Shown here piece after piece: positions 17 to 13,075 of a stretch of 14,510 nt of DNA. The stretch lies in UHGV virus genome UHGV-0176603; one strand, written 5' to 3'. Made by a program: the position numbers and the translations under genes. Origin of the DNA: a virus. How positions within the stretch are numbered: position 1 is the first letter of the stretch; each line of letters begins with the position of its first letter. Below the pieces are notes generated by a model that was given only the letters and a program-made list of their open reading frames with translations, was not told the origin of the DNA and did not search any database.

Positions 17-157
17 TTACTGCTTACACTGTAAGAACGCCGCAAACTCCGCTCCCCAGAAGCTCATCCGTATTTCACACAGCGAACCGTGCAGCATCCA
101 GATGATGAGGATTACCGTCACGCAGAACGTGATGGCCGTAAGCGATTTTTGCGACAT
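17..157 (-). CDS. Hok/Gef-family type I toxin (small membrane toxin, HokA-like), 46 aa
   Basis: Manual reverse-complement translation of 157->17 gives MSQKSLTAITFCVTVILIIWMLHGSLCEIRMSFWGAEFAAFLQCKQ*, with an N-terminal hydrophobic helix and the SLCE(I) motif plus a C-terminal Cys typical of Hok/Gef. ATG at 157 is preceded by AAAGGAG at about 7 nt spacing. Below the 60-aa cutoff, so absent from the ORF track. Confidence 0.65.
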   Translation of the reverse strand: MSQKSLTAITFCVTVILIIWMLHGSLCEIRMSFWGAEFAAFLQCKQ

Positions 158-186
158 AGCGCTTGCTCCTTTGTTGGAGAGGCGCT
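158..186 (-). promoter_or_regulatory. Imperfect hairpin in the hok-like 5' leader that buries the Shine-Dalgarno sequence
   Basis: Plus-strand AGCGC(158-162)...GCGCT(182-186) and CTCC(166-169)...GGAG(176-179) are inverted repeats; in the minus-strand mRNA the GGAG of the RBS lies in the stem immediately 5' of the ATG. Pairing judged by eye, not folded. Confidence 0.35.
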
Positions 187-346
187 AACCTATCACTTGC
201 TAGGTTGACGGGTTAGGGCCTCGGTTAAACAGAAATGTTTTCCGGGGCCTTTCCACATCCGGCCTTCGGGTATTCCCTCCGACCATCAGCCGAAAGGCAC
301 CCGCACGTAATCTATCGCTTTTTTGTTACTCCGGCAATTCTGCCTG

Positions 347-607
347 TTAATTCTGAGGTAAAGGCAAACTCATCTGATTGTTTCCCCTGTGTGAAGCTGG
401 CAGCTCATGCCACGGGATACCTTCTGATGAGTGAACGCCGGAGGCGTGTTTCGATGTGAATTTATGGAAAGCTTCCAGTGTTGAGAAGCATACGCCGCAT
501 TCCAGGTTGTTACACTGGTAATACTTTTGCCGCACGGTGTTTGAATCATTTTCCGGACGACTGGTGCGGATACGGGCAGATGCGCCACAAAGCGGACAAC
601 GGAACAT
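347..607 (-). CDS. ogr: Ogr/Delta-family zinc-finger late transcription activator
   Basis: 86-aa ORF starting MFRCPLCGASARIRTSR...YYQCNNLECG, matching the P2 Ogr pattern MFHCPLC...ARTSR...YHQC..C (CxxC...CxxxxC zinc finger). Strong RBS AAAGGAGGT upstream of ATG at 607. Lies just downstream of D, as in P2. Confidence 0.8.
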   Translation of the reverse strand: MFRCPLCGASARIRTSRPENDSNTVRQKYYQCNNLECGVCFSTLEAFHKFTSKHASGVHSSEGIPWHELPASHRGNNQMSLPLPQN

Positions 608-649
608 AGCGACCTCCTTTAACGTGGTGCTGCCGCTATTCTAAGTTGC

Positions 650-1759
650 TCACTCTGTTTCCGCTATCCATTCTGGGATTTTTGCTTCAAGCTCAAGCTG
701 CGTGGTAAAGCCGCTGTTATCAATGGTGTGCTCGGCTTTTGCAATAATCCAGTCCTGATTGTCGATGTCATTTTTGAAGCCTGTCACCGTGCCATGCATT
801 TCGGGATAGAGTTCTGCACGTCCACGCGCCAGCGTGATGGAGAATGATGCGGCTCCGCGTTGTAGTTGCTGCCACTTTGCCGCCGCTGCGCGTCTTGCTG
901 CCTGCTCGTTCTGATAAGTCTTGCGTAACACAAACACATTGCCTTCCGCGCCTTCCATATAATCACCTTCACGGCTGCTGCTTTTCTCCTTTTTGGGTTT
1001 TGGCGGTTTACGGCGTTTCACGCTGACTTTTTTCTTTTTCCCGTAATTAAGATCAAGCCAGTAGGCGCGTACCCCCGTATACGCCTCGCGGTCAGCAATA
1101 CGGAACTGATGGCGATCGCCGCTGCTGCGTGTAATGGCGAACGAGGGCAACGGCTGGCCCTGTGCGTTCACGCCACCACCTGGCATGATGAATAACAGAT
1201 TGCCGCTTTTTACCGTGGTGATTGCGCCCAGCATTTCCGCCATGCGCGTAAGGAAGGACATGTCGCTTTCTTCGGTCTGGTCGGCGTGGTCGATTTCGAT
1301 ATCCATCAGCATTTCGCTGATTTGCGGTTTCAGACCATACCGATGAGCGATGGCGGATACCACACGCTCAACGGTCACATCATGCCAGGACACCTCACGT
1401 TTAACGTTAAATTCATCCCGAAAATCTGCGCTTCTGGCTGAAACAGTCAGCCTGTCCGGCGGTCCTTCGTGAGCGATTTCATCAACAATGTAAGTGCCTT
1501 TTTCTGTCAGCGGTTCTCCCTTCCAGCCAATGAGAACCGTCAGGCGCGCGCCCCGTGGCGGTAGCTGCAACTGACCATCCGCATCATCCAGCGTGATGGT
1601 GAGCTGGTCCGCCTCAAATCCCCGGTTGTCGGTCAGCGACAGGCTCATCAGGCGCTCTGCCACGCCGGACAGCGTTTTACCCTCCGCGAGAATATCAAAA
1701 TCCGGCATTTTCACGGTGTCTGTGCCCTGACTGAGCAATTGCATGGTGGTGTCGGTCAT
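650..1759 (-). CDS. D: Tail protein D (P2 gpD-like late control/tail protein)
   Basis: ORF-track frame 650..1891; start reassigned to the ATG at 1759 (MTDTTMQLLSQG...), which has a GGGAGGG RBS about 6 nt upstream, giving 369 aa (P2 gpD is about 387 aa from memory). Position next to ogr matches P2. Confidence 0.85.
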   Translation of the reverse strand: MTDTTMQLLSQGTDTVKMPDFDILAEGKTLSGVAERLMSLSLTDNRGFEADQLTITLDDADGQLQLPPRGARLTVLIGWKGEPLTEKGTYIVDEIAHEGPPDRLTVSARSADFRDEFNVKREVSWHDVTVERVVSAIAHRYGLKPQISEMLMDIEIDHADQTEESDMSFLTRMAEMLGAITTVKSGNLLFIMPGGGVNAQGQPLPSFAITRSSGDRHQFRIADREAYTGVRAYWLDLNYGKKKKVSVKRRKPPKPKKEKSSSREGDYMEGAEGNVFVLRKTYQNEQAARRAAAAKWQQLQRGAASFSITLARGRAELYPEMHGTVTGFKNDIDNQDWIIAKAEHTIDNSGFTTQLELEAKIPEWIAETE

Positions 1760-1916
1760 CTGTTCCCTCCCTGTGCGGCATGGTCGCATGTGCGTGCGGA
1801 GTGGGTTACTGCTTTTTGTTGTCGCCGTGGCGGGAGAATAGCGCAGGGGTGAGATTACGCGCGTGGTGGGTGATGATTGTTGCTGAATCATTTAACGGAT
1901 ACAAGGGGCTGAAGCT
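1760..1916. promoter_or_regulatory. Divergent intergenic region between D (minus) and FI (plus); presumed to hold promoters for both
   Basis: 157-bp non-coding gap between two divergently oriented genes, each with its own RBS. Promoter elements are not confidently identifiable by eye. Confidence 0.3.
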
Positions 1917-3101
1917 ATGAGTGAAACTCGTTTTCATGGTGCCCGTGTTACGGAAAGTACCGACCTGGTAACAGCGATTAATGATGTTGATTCCAGCGTT
2001 ATCGGTATCGTGGCAACGGCGGATGATGCGGACGCGAAGCTGTTCCCGCTGAACAAGCCCACACTGCTGACCCGCGTCAATGACGTGCTGGGAAAATGCG
2101 GGACAACGGGGACGCTTTATCGTGCGCTTAAGGCCATCGCAGACCAGGTGAGCACAAAGGTGATCGTCGTTCGCGTGGCTGAACACAAAGAAGAAGACGG
2201 AAAGACGCAGGATCAACTGGTTATCGGTGGTTCTGAGGATGACGGCAGCTATACGGGGATGTATGCGCTGCTTGTTGCAGAGCAGGATGAAAGCATCGGA
2301 TACCGTCCGCGTATTCTGGCCGCGCCGGAGCTGGACACGGAGGCGGTAACAAAATCCCTGTGCGTGATTGCGGGTAAACTGCGCGCGTTTGTGTATGCCT
2401 CATGTCACGGCTGTAACACGATGGCTGAGGCGATTACCTACCGCCAGAAATTCAACGAACGTGAGGTGATGCTCTTATGGCCGGACTTCATCGCCTACAA
2501 CCCGAAAAGTGGCAAAAACGAAACGTTCCCCGCGCCTGCCTATGCGTGCGGCCTTCGTGCGTACATTGACCATGAACAGGGATGGCACAAATCGCTGTCC
2601 AACGTTCCGGTTAAAAATGTGCTGGGGATGTCCCGACATGTGTTCTGGTCGTTGCAGGCCGAAGACAGTGATGCCAACAGCCTCAACAACAAAGAAATCA
2701 CGACCATTATTCGTCGCAACGGGTTCCGCTTCTGGGGCAACCGCACACCGGAAACGAACGCCTACATCTTTGAGGTGTATACCCGAACCGCACAGGTGCT
2801 GGCTGATTCAATTGCGGAAGCGCAGTTTGAAACCATCGACAGTCCACTGACGCCTGCGAACGTGAAGGATGTTATCAGCGCCATCAGGGCAAAACTGGAT
2901 TCGCTGGTTACTGCCGGGAAACTGATTGGGGCGTCGTGCTGGTATGACATTGTGGATAACAGTACCACGGAATTGCGACAGGGGCGTGTGCGTATTCGCT
3001 ACAAATATACGCCCGTTCCTCCGCTGGAAGATATGGAGCTTTACCAGACGTTTACTGATGAATACTTTGATCCCGCATTTGCGGTGCTGGGAGGTGTCTG
3101 A
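1917..3101 (+). CDS. FI: Contractile tail sheath protein (P2 gpFI-like)
   Basis: 394-aa ORF (P2 FI is about 396 aa from memory) with conserved sheath motifs (KLRAF.Y, WPDF.A, GWHK.LSNV, IRR.GFRFWGNRT, YTRTAQV, YDYTPVPPLE). RBS AAGGGG 8 nt upstream of ATG. Confidence 0.9.
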   Translation: MSETRFHGARVTESTDLVTAINDVDSSVIGIVATADDADAKLFPLNKPTLLTRVNDVLGKCGTTGTLYRALKAIADQVSTKVIVVRVAEHKEEDGKTQDQLVIGGSEDDGSYTGMYALLVAEQDESIGYRPRILAAPELDTEAVTKSLCVIAGKLRAFVYASCHGCNTMAEAITYRQKFNEREVMLLWPDFIAYNPKSGKNETFPAPAYACGLRAYIDHEQGWHKSLSNVPVKNVLGMSRHVFWSLQAEDSDANSLNNKEITTIIRRNGFRFWGNRTPETNAYIFEVYTRTAQVLADSIAEAQFETIDSPLTPANVKDVISAIRAKLDSLVTAGKLIGASCWYDIVDNSTTELRQGRVRIRYKYTPVPPLEDMELYQTFTDEYFDPAFAVLGGV

Positions 3102-3613
3102 TGGCTGTACCAAAACATCTTCGCTTTTTTACGTTGTTTGTGGATGGTGAAAACGAAGTGGGCAAAGTGACATCCGTCACTCTGCCCAAACTGACGCGCA
3201 AAACCGACAGCTACCGGGGGGGCGGCATGATGGGTGCGGTAAGTATTGATCTCGGTCTGGACGACTCCGCGCTTGATGCGAGCTTTGTCATGGGGGGCGC
3301 AGTTCGTGAGCTGTTCCTTAAGTATGGCGGCACGATTGACGGCACGCTGCTGCGTTTTGCGGGTGAATACTACACCGATGCAGAAAGCGACCTGTATGAA
3401 GTCGAAATGCGCGGACGTGTGACGGAAATTGATATGGGGGAAGCCAAACAGGGCGAAGCCACATCACACACTTACGCCATTAAAAACACCTACTACAAGC
3501 TGAGTGTTAACGATCGCCCGTTGTGGGAGATTGACCTGCTGAACTTCATTTACCGGAAGGACGGCAAGGACATTGTGCCCGATCGCATCCGTTCCGCGCT
3601 TGGGCTTGGCTGA
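3101..3613 (+). CDS. FII: Tail tube protein (P2 gpFII-like)
   Basis: 170-aa ORF (P2 FII is about 172 aa from memory) whose ATG overlaps the FI stop (ATGA-type coupling); canonical position after the sheath gene. Confidence 0.88.
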   Translation: MAVPKHLRFFTLFVDGENEVGKVTSVTLPKLTRKTDSYRGGGMMGAVSIDLGLDDSALDASFVMGGAVRELFLKYGGTIDGTLLRFAGEYYTDAESDLYEVEMRGRVTEIDMGEAKQGEATSHTYAIKNTYYKLSVNDRPLWEIDLLNFIYRKDGKDIVPDRIRSALGLG

Positions 3614-4197: not shown

Positions 4198-6991
4198 TAT
4201 CCGGGTCGCTTTCAGCGCCGTTGACAGGCTGACCCGACCTGCCGAAAACGCACGCCGCCTGATGGGGCAGTTTGGTGACTCCATCCAGCGAACGCAGGGG
4301 GCGATCAAAAATCTCGAGCGTCAGGCGCGTTCATTTGAGCGCGCCCGCGACGCTGTCAGTAAAGCGGATGCGGGTATCGTGAAAGCACGACGCCAGCTTA
4401 ACGCCCTTAATCAGTTACAACGCACGGGTACAGTGCTCAGCGAAAAACAACAAAAGCTGATGCAGCAGTTAAGCACCCGGCTTGAACGCCTGAATGAATC
4501 GCGCACACGGGAAATTCAGAAAATGCGGGAGCTTGGAGGAGAGCTGAAACGCCACGGCATTTCCCTGACAGGCAGCGATAACACCATCCAGCAGGCCATC
4601 AGACGCACCGAACAGTACAACAACCAGCTTGAACGCGAACGGCAGGCGCTTGCGCGTGTAACGCGGGCGCGTGAGCGGTATTCGCGCGCGCAGGAAACCG
4701 CGGGAAAACTGAAAACAGGTGGTGCGCTGGCAATTGGTGCGGCAGCGGCGGGCGGCTATGCTGCCGGGCGTTTTTTGCAGCCTGCGATCGGGTTCGGGAA
4801 AGAGATGTCCCGCGTTCAGGCGCTGACGCGAATCGACCAGAACAGCCCACAGTTTAAGGCGCTGCGTGAGCAGGCGTTAAAACTTGGATCTGAAACGCAG
4901 TTCACCGCTGGAGATGCCGCCAGTGGACAGGCATTTCTTGCAATGGCTGGCTTCACACCACAGGCCATTCAGGCTGCGCTTCCCGGCGTGCTGAGCATGG
5001 CAACGGCTGGCGGTATGGATCTCGGCGAGACGGCGGATATTGGCTCAAACATCCTGACGCAGTTCGGCCTTTCTGCTGACCAGATGGACCGGGTCGGTGA
5101 CACGCTCACCGCAGCGTTTACCCGTACCAACACTGACCTTCGCGCACTGGGCGAAACCATGAAATATGCAGGTCCGGTGGCGGGTAAGCTGGGAATATCG
5201 CTGGAGCAGGCCGCAGCGATGGCGGGCGTGCTGGCGAATATGGGTATCAGGGGAAGTGATGCCGGGACGGCAATGCGTGCCAGCCTGGCTCGTCTGGCAT
5301 CACCACCAAAGGCGGCGGCAGAAGCTCTGAAAGAGCTGGGCGTGTCCGTCTCGGATGCCGGGGGCAAAATGCGCCCGATGGAGGATTTGCTGGCCGACCT
5401 TTATAAAGCCACCCGCAAATACGGGGAAGTTGACCGGGTATCGTTCTTTAAGGACATCGCCGGGGAAGAGGCTTTCACATCGTTTATGGCCCTCGTTGAT
5501 GCGGCAGGTGACGGCTCCTTACCCAAACTGAGAAAAGAACTTGAAGGCGCACGCGGTGAGGCTGAACGCACGGCAAAGGTTATGGCCAATAACCTTGATG
5601 GCGACCTGAAATCACTCGGCAGTGCATGGGAAGGGTTGCGCATCCGCATTGCAGATCTGATTGACGGCCCGCTGCGTTCTGTCACGCAGTGGCTCACGCG
5701 GGTGGTATCAAGGGTGACGGCGCTGGCGCAGGCCCATCCGGTACTGACGCGCCAGCTACTGATAGCAGGCGGTGCGCTGCTGGCAATGACTGCAACGGTT
5801 GGCTCGTTGTCGCTGGTTATTGGTGTGCTTCACGGGAAACTGGCCACGTTACGTCTTGGTTTTTCTCTCCTGACCGGATCAATGAATGTCGTCAGGGTGC
5901 TGCCAGCACTATGGGGAATGGTGACGGGTTCCGTTTCTTTACTGGGAGGCGCTATCGGGGCGCTGTTCAGTCCGGTCGGGTTGATTGCTGCAGCGTTTGT
6001 CGCTGCGGCGGTTCTCATCTGGAAATACTGGGAACCCATCAAGGCGTTTTATGCCGGGGTGTTCAGCGGGATTATGGAAAGACTGACCCCGTTGCGTGAA
6101 ACCTTTGAACGGTTTGGCCCTGTTTTTGACGCAATCGGAAGCGGGATCAGCCAGGTGTTTAACTGGTTTAAATCGCTGCTGTCACCGATGGAGTCCAGCA
6201 AGGAAACGCTGGATAAATGTACCAGTGCTGGCGAGATATTCGGTAATGTTCTTGGCGGTGCGTTACAACTTGTTCTGACGCCTGCAAAAATGCTACTGGA
6301 TACGCTGGCGTGGATACTTGAAAAACTTGGCGTCCTTCCGGATGAAGCGGAAAGGGCGCGCAAGAAAATCGAAGACGCACAGCGTGCGGCCATTCTTCAG
6401 GACAAGGTTGCTCTGTTTCAGGGAGACATTGCGAAAATCAATCCGCCGAAGTCTGCGGAAAATGGCAATGGCACCGGAGGCGATAAACCCAAAGACAACA
6501 AACCGCTCACAGACAGCAATACCGGTACGCTGCGCAGACTCAGCAAAATTGCTGATAACACAGGTAAGCTGGTTGAGGAGACGAAAAAACGCATTGGCCC
6601 CGGCGATATTGTCTTTAAAAACCTGCCCCGAGCACTTGCTGTTCGTGGGGAGTGGCAGGAGCGGAAGATTGCGCAGGTCAGTAAGCCTGCCCCCGCAATT
6701 AATATCACACCCGTGGTCCCGGCTCCGCTGCCTCCGGCGCTGGTCCCTGTTGTTGCGGCCAGCTCCCGCCCGGTGGCGGAGGCTATACGATCTCCAGTGG
6801 CATCAGTTCCTGTAACTTCCCGTAACCAGGAGCCTGTTGCCTCCGGATTTGGCGGTGAAATTCATGTTCATCTGCATAACGTTGTTACACAGAATCCCCG
6901 CGAACTGGCGAAACTGGTCGGTGAAATGGTCAGGGCAGAAATGGAACGGCGCGCCCGTGCCGGGCGTGGCAGTTTTTACGATAAAGATTGA
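4175..6991 (+). CDS. T: Tail tape measure protein (P2 gpT-like)
   Basis: Very long ORF (947 codons in the track from a GTG at 4148; first ATGs at 4175 and 4184) with a coiled-coil-like N-terminus, a central Gly/Ala-rich hydrophobic stretch and a Pro/Ala-rich C-terminus. Start codon uncertain. Confidence 0.85.
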   Translation: MQTMKTLDIRVAFSAVDRLTRPAENARRLMGQFGDSIQRTQGAIKNLERQARSFERARDAVSKADAGIVKARRQLNALNQLQRTGTVLSEKQQKLMQQLSTRLERLNESRTREIQKMRELGGELKRHGISLTGSDNTIQQAIRRTEQYNNQLERERQALARVTRARERYSRAQETAGKLKTGGALAIGAAAAGGYAAGRFLQPAIGFGKEMSRVQALTRIDQNSPQFKALREQALKLGSETQFTAGDAASGQAFLAMAGFTPQAIQAALPGVLSMATAGGMDLGETADIGSNILTQFGLSADQMDRVGDTLTAAFTRTNTDLRALGETMKYAGPVAGKLGISLEQAAAMAGVLANMGIRGSDAGTAMRASLARLASPPKAAAEALKELGVSVSDAGGKMRPMEDLLADLYKATRKYGEVDRVSFFKDIAGEEAFTSFMALVDAAGDGSLPKLRKELEGARGEAERTAKVMANNLDGDLKSLGSAWEGLRIRIADLIDGPLRSVTQWLTRVVSRVTALAQAHPVLTRQLLIAGGALLAMTATVGSLSLVIGVLHGKLATLRLGFSLLTGSMNVVRVLPALWGMVTGSVSLLGGAIGALFSPVGLIAAAFVAAAVLIWKYWEPIKAFYAGVFSGIMERLTPLRETFERFGPVFDAIGSGISQVFNWFKSLLSPMESSKETLDKCTSAGEIFGNVLGGALQLVLTPAKMLLDTLAWILEKLGVLPDEAERARKKIEDAQRAAILQDKVALFQGDIAKINPPKSAENGNGTGGDKPKDNKPLTDSNTGTLRRLSKIADNTGKLVEETKKRIGPGDIVFKNLPRALAVRGEWQERKIAQVSKPAPAINITPVVPAPLPPALVPVVAASSRPVAEAIRSPVASVPVTSRNQEPVASGFGGEIHVHLHNVVTQNPRELAKLVGEMVRAEMERRARAGRGSFYDKD

Positions 6992-7536: not shown

Positions 7537-7565
7537 AGGCCCGATATTCGGGCCTTTCGTTTATT
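7537..7565. terminator. Bidirectional rho-independent terminator between convergent U and G
   Basis: GGCCCG (7538-7543), loop ATATT, CGGGCC (7549-7554), then TTTCGTTTATT on plus; the minus strand reads as the same hairpin followed by TTATCGTTATTT. Confidence 0.6.
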
Positions 7566-8094
7566 CTGGTTGTTCCGGAAATGTAACGGGCAATTCAGAG
7601 GTATCAGTGGCTTCAATCTGTTGCACGTACCGCATCCAGTTCATCAGTTGTTGCCTGTCTGAATCAGTGATAATCCCCAAAGTAAGCTGGGTTTGCCAGA
7701 ACTGCGTTTTTTCTCTGGCCTGTTGTAACAACTTTTGTTTCTGATTTTCAACCTGCAACCGTTGCTCTTCTTCGGAATATATACGTTTAATGACGGCACC
7801 ATCCTTAAACATCCATTTACCTGAGTCATCAGCACGTCGGTTGGCGGTAATATCAGGAACCTCGACAACGCTGAAACCTTCAGGGTTAAGCGTTGAAGCA
7901 TCTCTGGTGATGCCGACAATTATATTATTCTCGTCGTAAACAATCTTTATCGTGTCTTCCTGAAAATTACTTACTTCCTCATACCAGTTTTTTCCCTCTT
8001 CGGACCATAACCAGATAACATCAAAATTTTTTGTCAGTTGATACTGGGCAACAGTTTTTGGATTACCCGCAGTAATATTTTTTAAATGCTGCAT
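7561..8094 (-). CDS. G: Tail fiber assembly chaperone (P2 gpG-like Tfa)
   Basis: 177-aa [42 protein letters not shown]...[32 protein letters not shown], very close to my recollection of the P2 gpG N-terminal domain; the C-terminal half diverges. Sits immediately downstream of H. Confidence 0.85.
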
Positions 8095-12434: not shown

Positions 12435-13075
12435 CGTACAGCCTCCGCAATCCGGCCCAGCACCGTGTTATAAATCAGGCGTTCATCTGCCTGACTGATG
12501 CCCAACAGCTCACGTACCGGGTAATCGGTGAAAATGCCCGGAGCAACCTGATCGCGCTCACCGAACTGATGAACGCGTGCAATACGTGCGGCCACGCCGC
12601 TGTAACCCACCGTCACACCGGAAGCATCTGCACGGGCTTTCAGGTAGCGGGCGGTGCGCAGTTTTACGAACATGGGGACGCGCCTGGTGCTGTCCTGGTT
12701 GATGCGCCGGGTGCGTATTTCCAGAAAGCGGTCGATGTCATCCCGGTAAAACGTGCGGATGCTGTTTTTATCCTCATCCCACCCGGTGATGGTTCGCCCG
12801 TATTTCCCCGTGTCGTGATGCCAGTTTTTCAGCGTGCGTGCTTCGTTATTCCAGATAAAGCGAATGCGCTCCTGTATCCGGGTTACGCGGCGTCTGCGTG
12901 GTGTCCATGCAGTTCCGTCCGGCGCTTTCTGTGACCGGATACGTGCCTGCTGGGCGCGACGTAAATCCTGTGCCAGCTTTCTGGCGATGTTATTGATGGC
13001 CTGCTGATTCAGGCTGTCGCGGATAGCCTCAAAGGTTTCATCCACGCGGGTGAATGCCTTATCCATCGCTTTCAC
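12431..13075 (-). CDS. S: Tail completion / virion morphogenesis protein (gpS-like)
   Basis: 214-aa basic ORF between R and V, the position of P2 gene S; it is longer than P2 gpS (about 150 aa from memory). Family assignment rests on position and composition. Confidence 0.65.
   Translation of the reverse strand: MKAMDKAFTRVDETFEAIRDSLNQQAINNIARKLAQDLRRAQQARIRSQKAPDGTAWTPRRRRVTRIQERIRFIWNNEARTLKNWHHDTGKYGRTITGWDEDKNSIRTFYRDDIDRFLEIRTRRINQDSTRRVPMFVKLRTARYLKARADASGVTVGYSGVAARIARVHQFGERDQVAPGIFTDYPVRELLGISQADERLIYNTVLGRIAEAVR

Follow-up and report, generated by a model that had tools for sequence, protein, structure and literature searches.

The left end of the window (the whole 14,510-nucleotide stretch of virus genome UHGV-0176603 analyzed here) is proposed to harbor a toxin gene belonging to a type I toxin-antitoxin (TA) module of the hok/sok type, carried as cargo between ogr and the attachment site (att) of a P88-like prophage (genus Xuanwuvirus, family Peduoviridae) located past the leuZ terminator, a reading to which we assign a probability of approximately 0.88. 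The value of the analysis is at the level of annotation, in that the RNA parts of the module (Sok, tac-fbi, and a truncated mok) have been identified, and as a discovery it carries little weight. The gene was known beforehand and is annotated as a matter of routine, and approximately one-third of complete Escherichia coli genomes carry the module.

A Hok/Gef family toxin gene adjacent to ogr

The first-pass annotation, which was made from the sequence of the window, had assigned a 46-codon open reading frame (ORF) on the minus strand to the Hok/Gef family, and profile searches bore out this assignment. The 46-amino-acid (aa) translation of positions 17 to 157 (MSQKSLTAITFCVTVILIIWMLHGSLCEIRMSFWGAEFAAFLQCKQ) matched the Pfam model HOK_GEF (PF01848) across residues 7 to 44 with a score of 30.1 bits (cut-off, 22; E value, 3.7e-7), and it matched PHROG 251 (“MokW-like host killing”) end to end (residues 1 to 46; E value, 2.5e-23). 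The cut-offs of the NCBIfam models for HokA (NF007290; 35.8 bits against a cut-off of 89) and Hok (NF007279; 23.6 bits against a cut-off of 73) were not reached, and because these scores fall far short, the sequence comparisons indicate that the peptide is a member of the Hok/Gef family which is neither a HokA ortholog nor an ortholog of any named Hok protein of K-12.

Alignment of the peptide with R1-type Hok, HokW, and HokC revealed invariant columns at M1, C12, T14, C27, E28, A39, and F41. A recent catalogue lists seven residues (M1, C16, T18, L30, C31, E32, and E41 in R1 numbering) as being shared by more than 80% of Hok peptides (10.1101/2025.08.07.668861), and the window Hok retains all seven (M1, C12, T14, L26, C27, E28, and E37) at a constant offset of −4 relative to R1. 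Among the family hallmarks cited previously, the N-terminal membrane helix and the SLCEIR motif hold, whereas the C-terminal Cys is not universal, being present at that site in 34% of the catalogued Hok peptides (10.1101/2025.08.07.668861) and replaced by Tyr in R1 Hok in our peptide alignment. Comparison of hok with two intact relatives, all with a truncated mok, yielded dN/dS values of 0.22 to 0.28 which, although noisy given that they derive from only 46 codons, point to purifying selection on the gene. A larger ORF crossing the hok region in another frame, which had been named as the finding that would overturn the assignment, was not detected once the analysis was extended leftward beyond position 1. 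The ORF is a genuine hok-type gene, the membrane toxicity of its product being predicted by family assignment.

Location of hok within a P88-like prophage

The gap between the ogr stop codon (position 347) and the start of hok (position 157) measures 189 bp, in agreement with the earlier estimate of about 190 bp. The sequence to the left of the window was obtained from the corresponding locus of E. coli 95-3192 (L001), in which window position 1 corresponds to position 6001. Homology to K-12 in this locus extends through pgsA-glyW-cysT-leuZ and ends at L001 position 5074, the end of the leuZ 3′ETS terminator, placing the host junction approximately 0.93 kb to the left of the window, beyond hok and directly past the leuZ terminator. 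Since K-12 homology ends at this point, the prophage begins there and hok lies inside it, which answers the question that the leftward extension proposed in the first-pass annotation was intended to decide. Homology to phage P88 ends at L001 position 5896, just past the hok terminator; the intervening stretch from hok to att (L001 positions 5075 to 5896, or approximately 105 to 926 nt to the left of window position 1) is, therefore, on the basis of these alignments, considered a variable cargo slot. This slot contains an ORF of 93 aa (L001 positions 5546 to 5827) which belongs to PHROG 27544 and weakly resembles a membrane-associated moron protein.

The ogr-hok pair was also found at prophage ends located by serS (E. 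coli E302, L019) and by ytfP-yidD (BEC1, L020), which together with leuZ constitute three integration sites. The locus comparisons indicate that hok is an accessory (moron) gene of a P2-family prophage, not belonging to its conserved set of structural and regulatory genes, and that the gap between ogr and att in P88-like phages serves as a cargo slot. Separately, in Escherichia albertii (L016) a hok gene is located beside serS and ogr was not detected, an arrangement which may represent a prophage scar retaining the toxin locus.

Predicted structure of the hok mRNA

The window does not contain the 3′ part of the hok transcript: the 3′ untranslated region (UTR) begins at positions 16 to 1 of the minus strand, where it is cut by the window edge, and both the fbi element and the terminator are located to the left of position 1. 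The intrinsic terminator, identified by a terminator scan, occupies L001 positions 5903 to 5930 (minus strand; 71 to 98 nt to the left of position 1). At the 5′ end, a putative hok promoter (positions 309 to 337, minus strand), starting 10 nt past the ogr stop codon, was read from the sequence as TTGCCG (positions 337 to 332) and TAGATT (positions 314 to 309) separated by a 17-bp spacer; its hexamers recur in the copies of Shiga toxin (Stx) phages, Salmonella, and other E. coli. A consensus promoter scan returned no sigma-70 match, the hok promoter hexamers, which match the consensus weakly, falling below its threshold, and the assignments of both this promoter and the sok promoter described below consequently derive from homology only. 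Because the terminator scan detected no terminator between ogr and hok, read-through from the late operon into hok at induction is conceivable from the arrangement of the sequence.

The leader was matched by Rfam family RF01794 (“sok”), whose full model (positions 1 to 157) aligned with window positions 302 to 147 of the minus strand with a score of 47.3 bits (E value, 3.5e-9), which is below the gathering score of 59. As this model starts like the 5′ end of the hokW mRNA and ends at the hok AUG, it describes the hok leader on the sense strand.

An mRNA of 409 nt is predicted when position 302 is taken as +1 and the terminator (L001 positions 5930 to 5903) as the 3′ end. The folding energy of this RNA was −178.4 kcal/mol, compared with −136.8 ± 5.9 kcal/mol for shuffled sequences (z = −7.08). 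In the predicted fold, the first 14 to 15 nt, which include the tac element (GGGUGCCUUUC; positions 292 to 302, minus strand), pair with AAGGCACCC and neighboring bases, the fbi element at mRNA positions 339 to 351 (L001 positions 5952 to 5964, minus strand; approximately 40 to 50 nt to the left of position 1), with a probability of approximately 0.98, the duplex having an energy of −26.3 kcal/mol. Equivalent pairings are formed by GGGUGCUUGAGG and CCUCAACGCACCC in hokW and by GGCGCUU and AAGCGCC in the R1-type locus, and the modeled 5′-3′ pairing of the window mRNA corresponds to the tac-fbi lock of the family.

The earlier proposal that the AAGGAG site resides in a leader hairpin was upheld by folding. 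This Shine-Dalgarno (SD) sequence, read from the sequence at positions 166 to 171 of the minus strand, is located 8 nt before the AUG and is held by UAGCGCCUCUCC within a predicted hairpin, UAGCGCCUCUCC/GGAGCAAGCGCUA (window positions 187 to 157; mRNA positions 116 to 146), which has an energy of −14.2 kcal/mol when folded alone; in the full-length fold, the GGAG bases have an unpaired probability of approximately 0.

The fold was further assessed for covariation in an alignment of 12 copies of this Hok subfamily. The full-length structure was paired in 88.6% of alignment cells, compared with 38 to 44% when the partners were slid, although the percentage paired is inflated by the derivation of the structure from one of the aligned sequences. 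That derivation does not explain the compensatory changes: 19 pairs exhibited double-sided changes, a number reached by none of 500 shuffles, and the covariation score was 0.170 compared with 0.04 to 0.08. Across the 12 copies, covariation thus supports the fold predicted for the window. The tac-fbi and SD helices themselves vary very little, with helix 1 (tac-fbi) being paired in 93.8% of cells and helix 7 (the SD hairpin) in 93.9%, the latter displaying one-sided changes and no compensatory pairs among the 12 copies; both are compatible with, and not proven by, covariation.

A putative Sok antisense RNA

The first-pass annotation had been unable to discern an antisense RNA by eye and had suggested a search of the plus strand for a promoter and terminator. 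A consensus scan flagged neither a sok promoter nor a Sok terminator, whereas comparison with homologs made a candidate Sok identifiable. Its putative promoter (positions 163 to 191, plus strand) comprises TTGCTC (positions 163 to 168), a 17-bp spacer, and TAACCT (positions 186 to 191), hexamers which are conserved in all relatives and which align with the R1 sok promoter. As deduced by comparing primers YO-421/422 with wild-type Sp5 (L010), the TAACCT hexamer is that mutated in the “pro-less” sokW construct, and antitoxin activity was lost in the promoter-less sokW construct of Takada et al. (PMC8621323).

The putative Sok RNA itself is placed at positions 199 to 256 of the plus strand, both ends of which we infer, with a terminator hairpin at positions 215 to 251. 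With a start near positions 198 to 199, its length would be approximately 55 to 60 nt, and it is colinear with the annotated 59-nt sokC of K-12. The candidate has a folding energy of −24 kcal/mol (z = −2.9), a poor U-tract (UUUCC), and a promoter with a weak match to the consensus. The arms of the SD hairpin (window positions 157 to 191) coincide with the putative sok −35 and −10 hexamers on the opposite strand, and this overlap may explain the near-invariance of the SD helix.

A truncated mok reading frame in the hok leader

The claim that no mok-like frame overlaps hok is accurate for the window copy and is incomplete, as the leader contains a 21-codon ORF (MWKGPGKHFCLTEALTRQPSK; positions 193 to 258, minus strand) which is a truncated mok-like frame. 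Its AUG is conserved (mRNA position 45; window positions 258 to 256), 103 nt upstream of hok, and its stop codon lies 5 nt before the anti-SD strand and 21 nt before the hok SD. When ATG, GTG, TTG, CTG, ATT, ATC, and ATA were considered as start codons, none opened any of the three frames across the hok SD in the window copy or in two intact relatives from Stx phages. In hokW, hokC, and the R1-type locus, the mok ATG is positioned just past GAGGC in the Sok-target loop, and mokC, mokW, and the R1-type mok are in frame with their respective hok genes; in the alignment, the window locus and its subfamily have no ATG at this target-loop position.

In three relatives, a long frame begins at the AUG at mRNA position 45, comprising 79 codons in E. 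albertii (L016, positions 1398 to 1637), 61 in E. coli E302 (L019), and 78 in E. coli BEC1 (L020), and in each case it continues past the hok SD into hok, which it overlaps in a different frame. The E302 copy encodes a Hok which differs by one residue, within a module that is 93% identical to that of the window. Sequence comparison identifies this long frame as a classical mok and the ORF in the window as its truncated counterpart. Among the 14 loci inspected, mok was long in 3, devoid of an AUG in 1, and cut to 8 to 25 codons in 10, of which 7 have their stop codon −3 to +5 nt from the anti-SD strand.

In R1, toxicity is suppressed when mok is interrupted by a stop codon upstream of hok (PMC9841398), and by this rule the window copy, whose mok is cut before the hok SD, could be attenuated in its translation of Hok. 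The polymorphism of mok, long in some copies and cut in most, around a conserved hok is the sole departure from the textbook system and represents a modest lead: such natural alleles would allow a test of whether translation of mok is always needed for Hok synthesis.

A possible structural switch in the leader

The leader also contains a potential Sok-target hairpin, GAGGCCCUAACC/GGUUAGCGCCUC, and because the 3′ strand of this hairpin overlaps the anti-SD strand, it and the SD hairpin are mutually exclusive. In predicted 3′-shortened RNAs, the 5′ end folds onto positions 49 to 59 and the target hairpin appears, while the SD hairpin is closed in every such form. The predicted cost of opening the translation-initiation region was 14.5 kcal/mol in the full-length RNA, 8.7 to 14.4 kcal/mol in 3′-shortened RNAs (depending on the assumed end), and approximately 16 kcal/mol with the Sok site blocked; this constitutes a weak trend which depends on the assumed 3′ end of the model and was not taken as evidence for a switch. 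Each of the 12 copies is able to form the helices of the refolded structure (97% paired), which do not vary among them, and covariation consequently neither supports nor refutes them. A structural switch in the leader is, based on these models, a possibility. A bolder and rather doubtful proposal is that a selected hok with a truncated mok in most copies reflects mok-independent or “terminating-ribosome” activation, in which pairing with Sok would drive the leader into its SD-closed form without blocking mok.

Proposed mode of action and alternative interpretations

By homology with R1 hok/sok, sokC, and hokW-sokW, the full-length hok mRNA would be stable and translationally silent until slow trimming of its 3′ end removes fbi, upon which the leader would refold. 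A labile Sok of approximately 55 to 60 nt, expressed from the plus-strand TTGCTC-17-TAACCT promoter, is presumed to pair with the leader at approximately positions 47 to 105, bringing about repression and cleavage by RNase III. Where Sok is not replenished, Hok would be synthesized, enter the inner membrane, and kill or lyse the cell. The supply of Sok could stop upon loss of the element, shut-off of transcription by an infecting phage, or prophage induction, and the likely benefit to the phage is any one of prophage retention, the exclusion of competing phages, and assistance with lysis. The hokW-sokW module is an experimentally demonstrated type I TA system, with earlier lysis and higher Sp5 release at induction (PMC8621323), and R1 hok/sok has been reported to exclude T4, as cited in the same paper.

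It is possible, if unlikely, that the locus represents an attenuated or silenced relic in which the mok frame needed to open the hok SD has been cut short, and which persists by hitchhiking with the prophage. Consistent with such decay, mok ends after 21 codons, 21 nt short of the hok SD, with no start-like codon opening a frame across it, and stops in mok upstream of hok abolish toxicity in R1 (PMC9841398); furthermore, the SD hairpin is closed in all predicted 3′-shortened forms, some sister copies have decayed (the frameshift in Stx2_481 and the deletion in EH2011), and the prophage itself is a remnant in RM12581 and 95-3192. A relic would not, however, be expected to have kept hok at its ORF length, with a strong SD and every residue conserved in the family, nor dN/dS values of 0.22 to 0.28 among copies which all have a truncated mok, and the tac-fbi pairing, Sok promoter, and Sok hairpin are likewise intact. 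In 7 of the 10 truncated copies, moreover, a terminating ribosome near the anti-SD strand could still unwind the SD hairpin, and the active phage P88 has an identical gene. The toxin gene of a hok/sok-type module remains the preferred reading.

The location of the gene had previously been left as either a toxin moron at the prophage edge or an adjacent host locus, of which the former is favored by the phage records and by a junction situated 0.93 kb further out. Assignment to the host chromosome beside the prophage was prompted by the position of hok on the far side of ogr, since on the P2 map no further gene separates ogr from att. This alternative is rendered very improbable by the fact that the ogr-hok pair is internal in the records of phages P88, Chuche, PhiR44_2, P884B11, and Shae_phiSM, by the lack of such a gene at leuZ in K-12, whose homology ends 0.93 kb further out, and by the occurrence of the pair at serS and ytfP-yidD in other strains; it was rejected on these grounds of phage records, comparison with K-12, and multiple integration sites. 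More improbable still, to the point of being negligible, is the absence of any gene, with a short ORF and its motif having arisen by chance: any window of 14.5 kb contains many ORFs of 46 codons, but three independent profile matches, to Pfam, PHROG, and Rfam (E values of 3.7e-7, 2.5e-23, and 3.5e-9, respectively), together with the purifying selection acting on the ORF and the covariation of the RNA structure, led us to reject it.

Comparison with characterized hok/sok systems

The proposed module resembles that of R1 hok/sok (parB), the paradigm of type I TA systems, in the N-terminal membrane helix and SLCEIR motif of its toxin (33% peptide identity) and in possessing a structured mRNA of approximately 0.4 kb (predicted in the case of the window) with tac-fbi pairing, a sequestered AAGGAG, and an fbi which starts approximately 50 to 60 nt past the stop codon. 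The R1 sok promoter (TTGCGC-17-TATCCT) and its putative counterpart in the window (TTGCTC-17-TAACCT) both overlap the hok ribosome-binding region. The two modules differ in that the window Hok comprises 46 aa compared with 52 in R1, while the leader from GCCUC to the SD is 9 nt shorter. The mok start of the window copy, at mRNA position 45, lies opposite the 3′ part of Sok, whereas R1 mok starts in the Sok-target loop at approximately position 116, and, unlike that of R1, it is cut to 21 codons. The window module is, in addition, prophage borne, whereas that of R1 is plasmid borne.

With hokW-sokW of the Stx2 prophage Sp5/933W (PMC8621323), the window module shares prophage carriage, the PHROG family name, the sok −10 hexamer TAACCT, and the leader plan. 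HokW, however, comprises 51 aa and is 33% identical to the window Hok, its mok begins at an ATG at the classical target-loop site, in frame with hok, which the window copy lacks, and its host is a lambdoid phage. A second copy in Sp5/933W, with 76% aa and 84% DNA identity, is much closer to the window gene than is hokW. The K-12 hokC/mokC/sokC locus (gef) has the same architecture, and the 59-nt sokC maps to the homologous part of the leader; the HokC peptide is 24% identical, the start codon of mokC falls within the target loop and its frame is that of hokC, and the K-12 copy is disrupted downstream by IS186. The nearest counterpart is found in phage P88, whose gp52 (YP_009113095.1), like WP_000078920.1, is identical in protein sequence to the window Hok and is encoded at the same place beside ogr.

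Distribution and annotation of the hok module

The description of the gene as unannotated held for the ORF track used at the time and not for public databases, since the identical coding sequence (CDS) is present in RefSeq as WP_000078920.1 (“Hok/Gef family protein”), beside the ogr/Delta-like zinc-finger gene and gene D. The databases mark the CDS only, and Sok, mok, and RNA elements such as tac-fbi are annotated nowhere. Over its first 650 bases, the window matches many chromosomes of Shiga toxin-producing E. coli with 100% identity, including those of O145:H28 strains RM12581 and RM13514, and the 323-base hok module was detected in 1,750 of 5,426 complete E. coli genomes, amounting to approximately 2,860 copies with up to nine places per genome, being labeled Hok/Gef in every case among the matches listed.

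Within the phage collection, an ogr-adjacent hok with 94 to 98% identity was found in P88 and P884B11 (both of genus Xuanwuvirus, Peduoviridae), Chuche, PhiR44_2, 500465-2, 520873, and Citrobacter phage Shae_phiSM. Hok genes have been reported to be enriched in prophages (10.1101/2025.08.07.668861), and a literature search for a hok described in P2-like phages returned nothing specific. A homolog with approximately 84% DNA and 76% protein identity is present in many phages of the Stx-converting type, 933W and VT2-Sakai among them; in 933W (NC_000924.1, positions 45660 to 45797) and VT2-Sakai (AP000363.1, positions 44701 to 44838), this 46-aa, 76% identical homolog is present besides hokW and is unannotated. 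Disrupted copies of hok occur in Stx2a phages, with an extra G causing a frameshift in Stx2_481 (L004) and an 8-nt deletion in EH2011 (L006), and both retain a well-kept leader and 3′ UTR despite the broken hok.

A profile search with a three-member Hok alignment returned six loci, three of which are probably contaminants: their contigs are labeled as a Planococcaceae metagenome-assembled genome (MAG) and Vagococcus sp. (100% identical hok and ogr) and Xanthomonas pisi (a partial copy with 74% identity) (L013, L014, and L017). These copies most likely reflect enterobacterial contamination or misbinning.

Additional features of the prophage

Insertion at leuZ leaves the sequence of the 3′ETS-leuZ regulatory RNA intact up to its T-run (L001 positions 5005 to 5075; L009). 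In both RM12581 and 95-3192, the prophage is a remnant whose integrase and early region are missing or have given way to IS3 and a type I restriction-modification island. In O145:H28 RM12581 (L008, positions 12749 to 14700), the P2-like prophage, without integrase and early genes, borders on that side IS3 and a type I restriction-modification island that has decayed, and in 95-3192 (L001, positions 12503 to 12650), the tape-measure gene is cut by IS3. Gene D (positions 650 to 1891, minus strand) was mechanically called as an ORF of 413 aa from the first ATG, compared with the 369-aa product in RefSeq (positions 650 to 1759). A gene encoding a “recombinase family protein” is situated between oppositely oriented tail fiber assembly genes (window positions approximately 7561 to 8094, minus strand; L008 positions 27906 to 30539), a region which looks like a Gin/Cin-type invertible host range segment.
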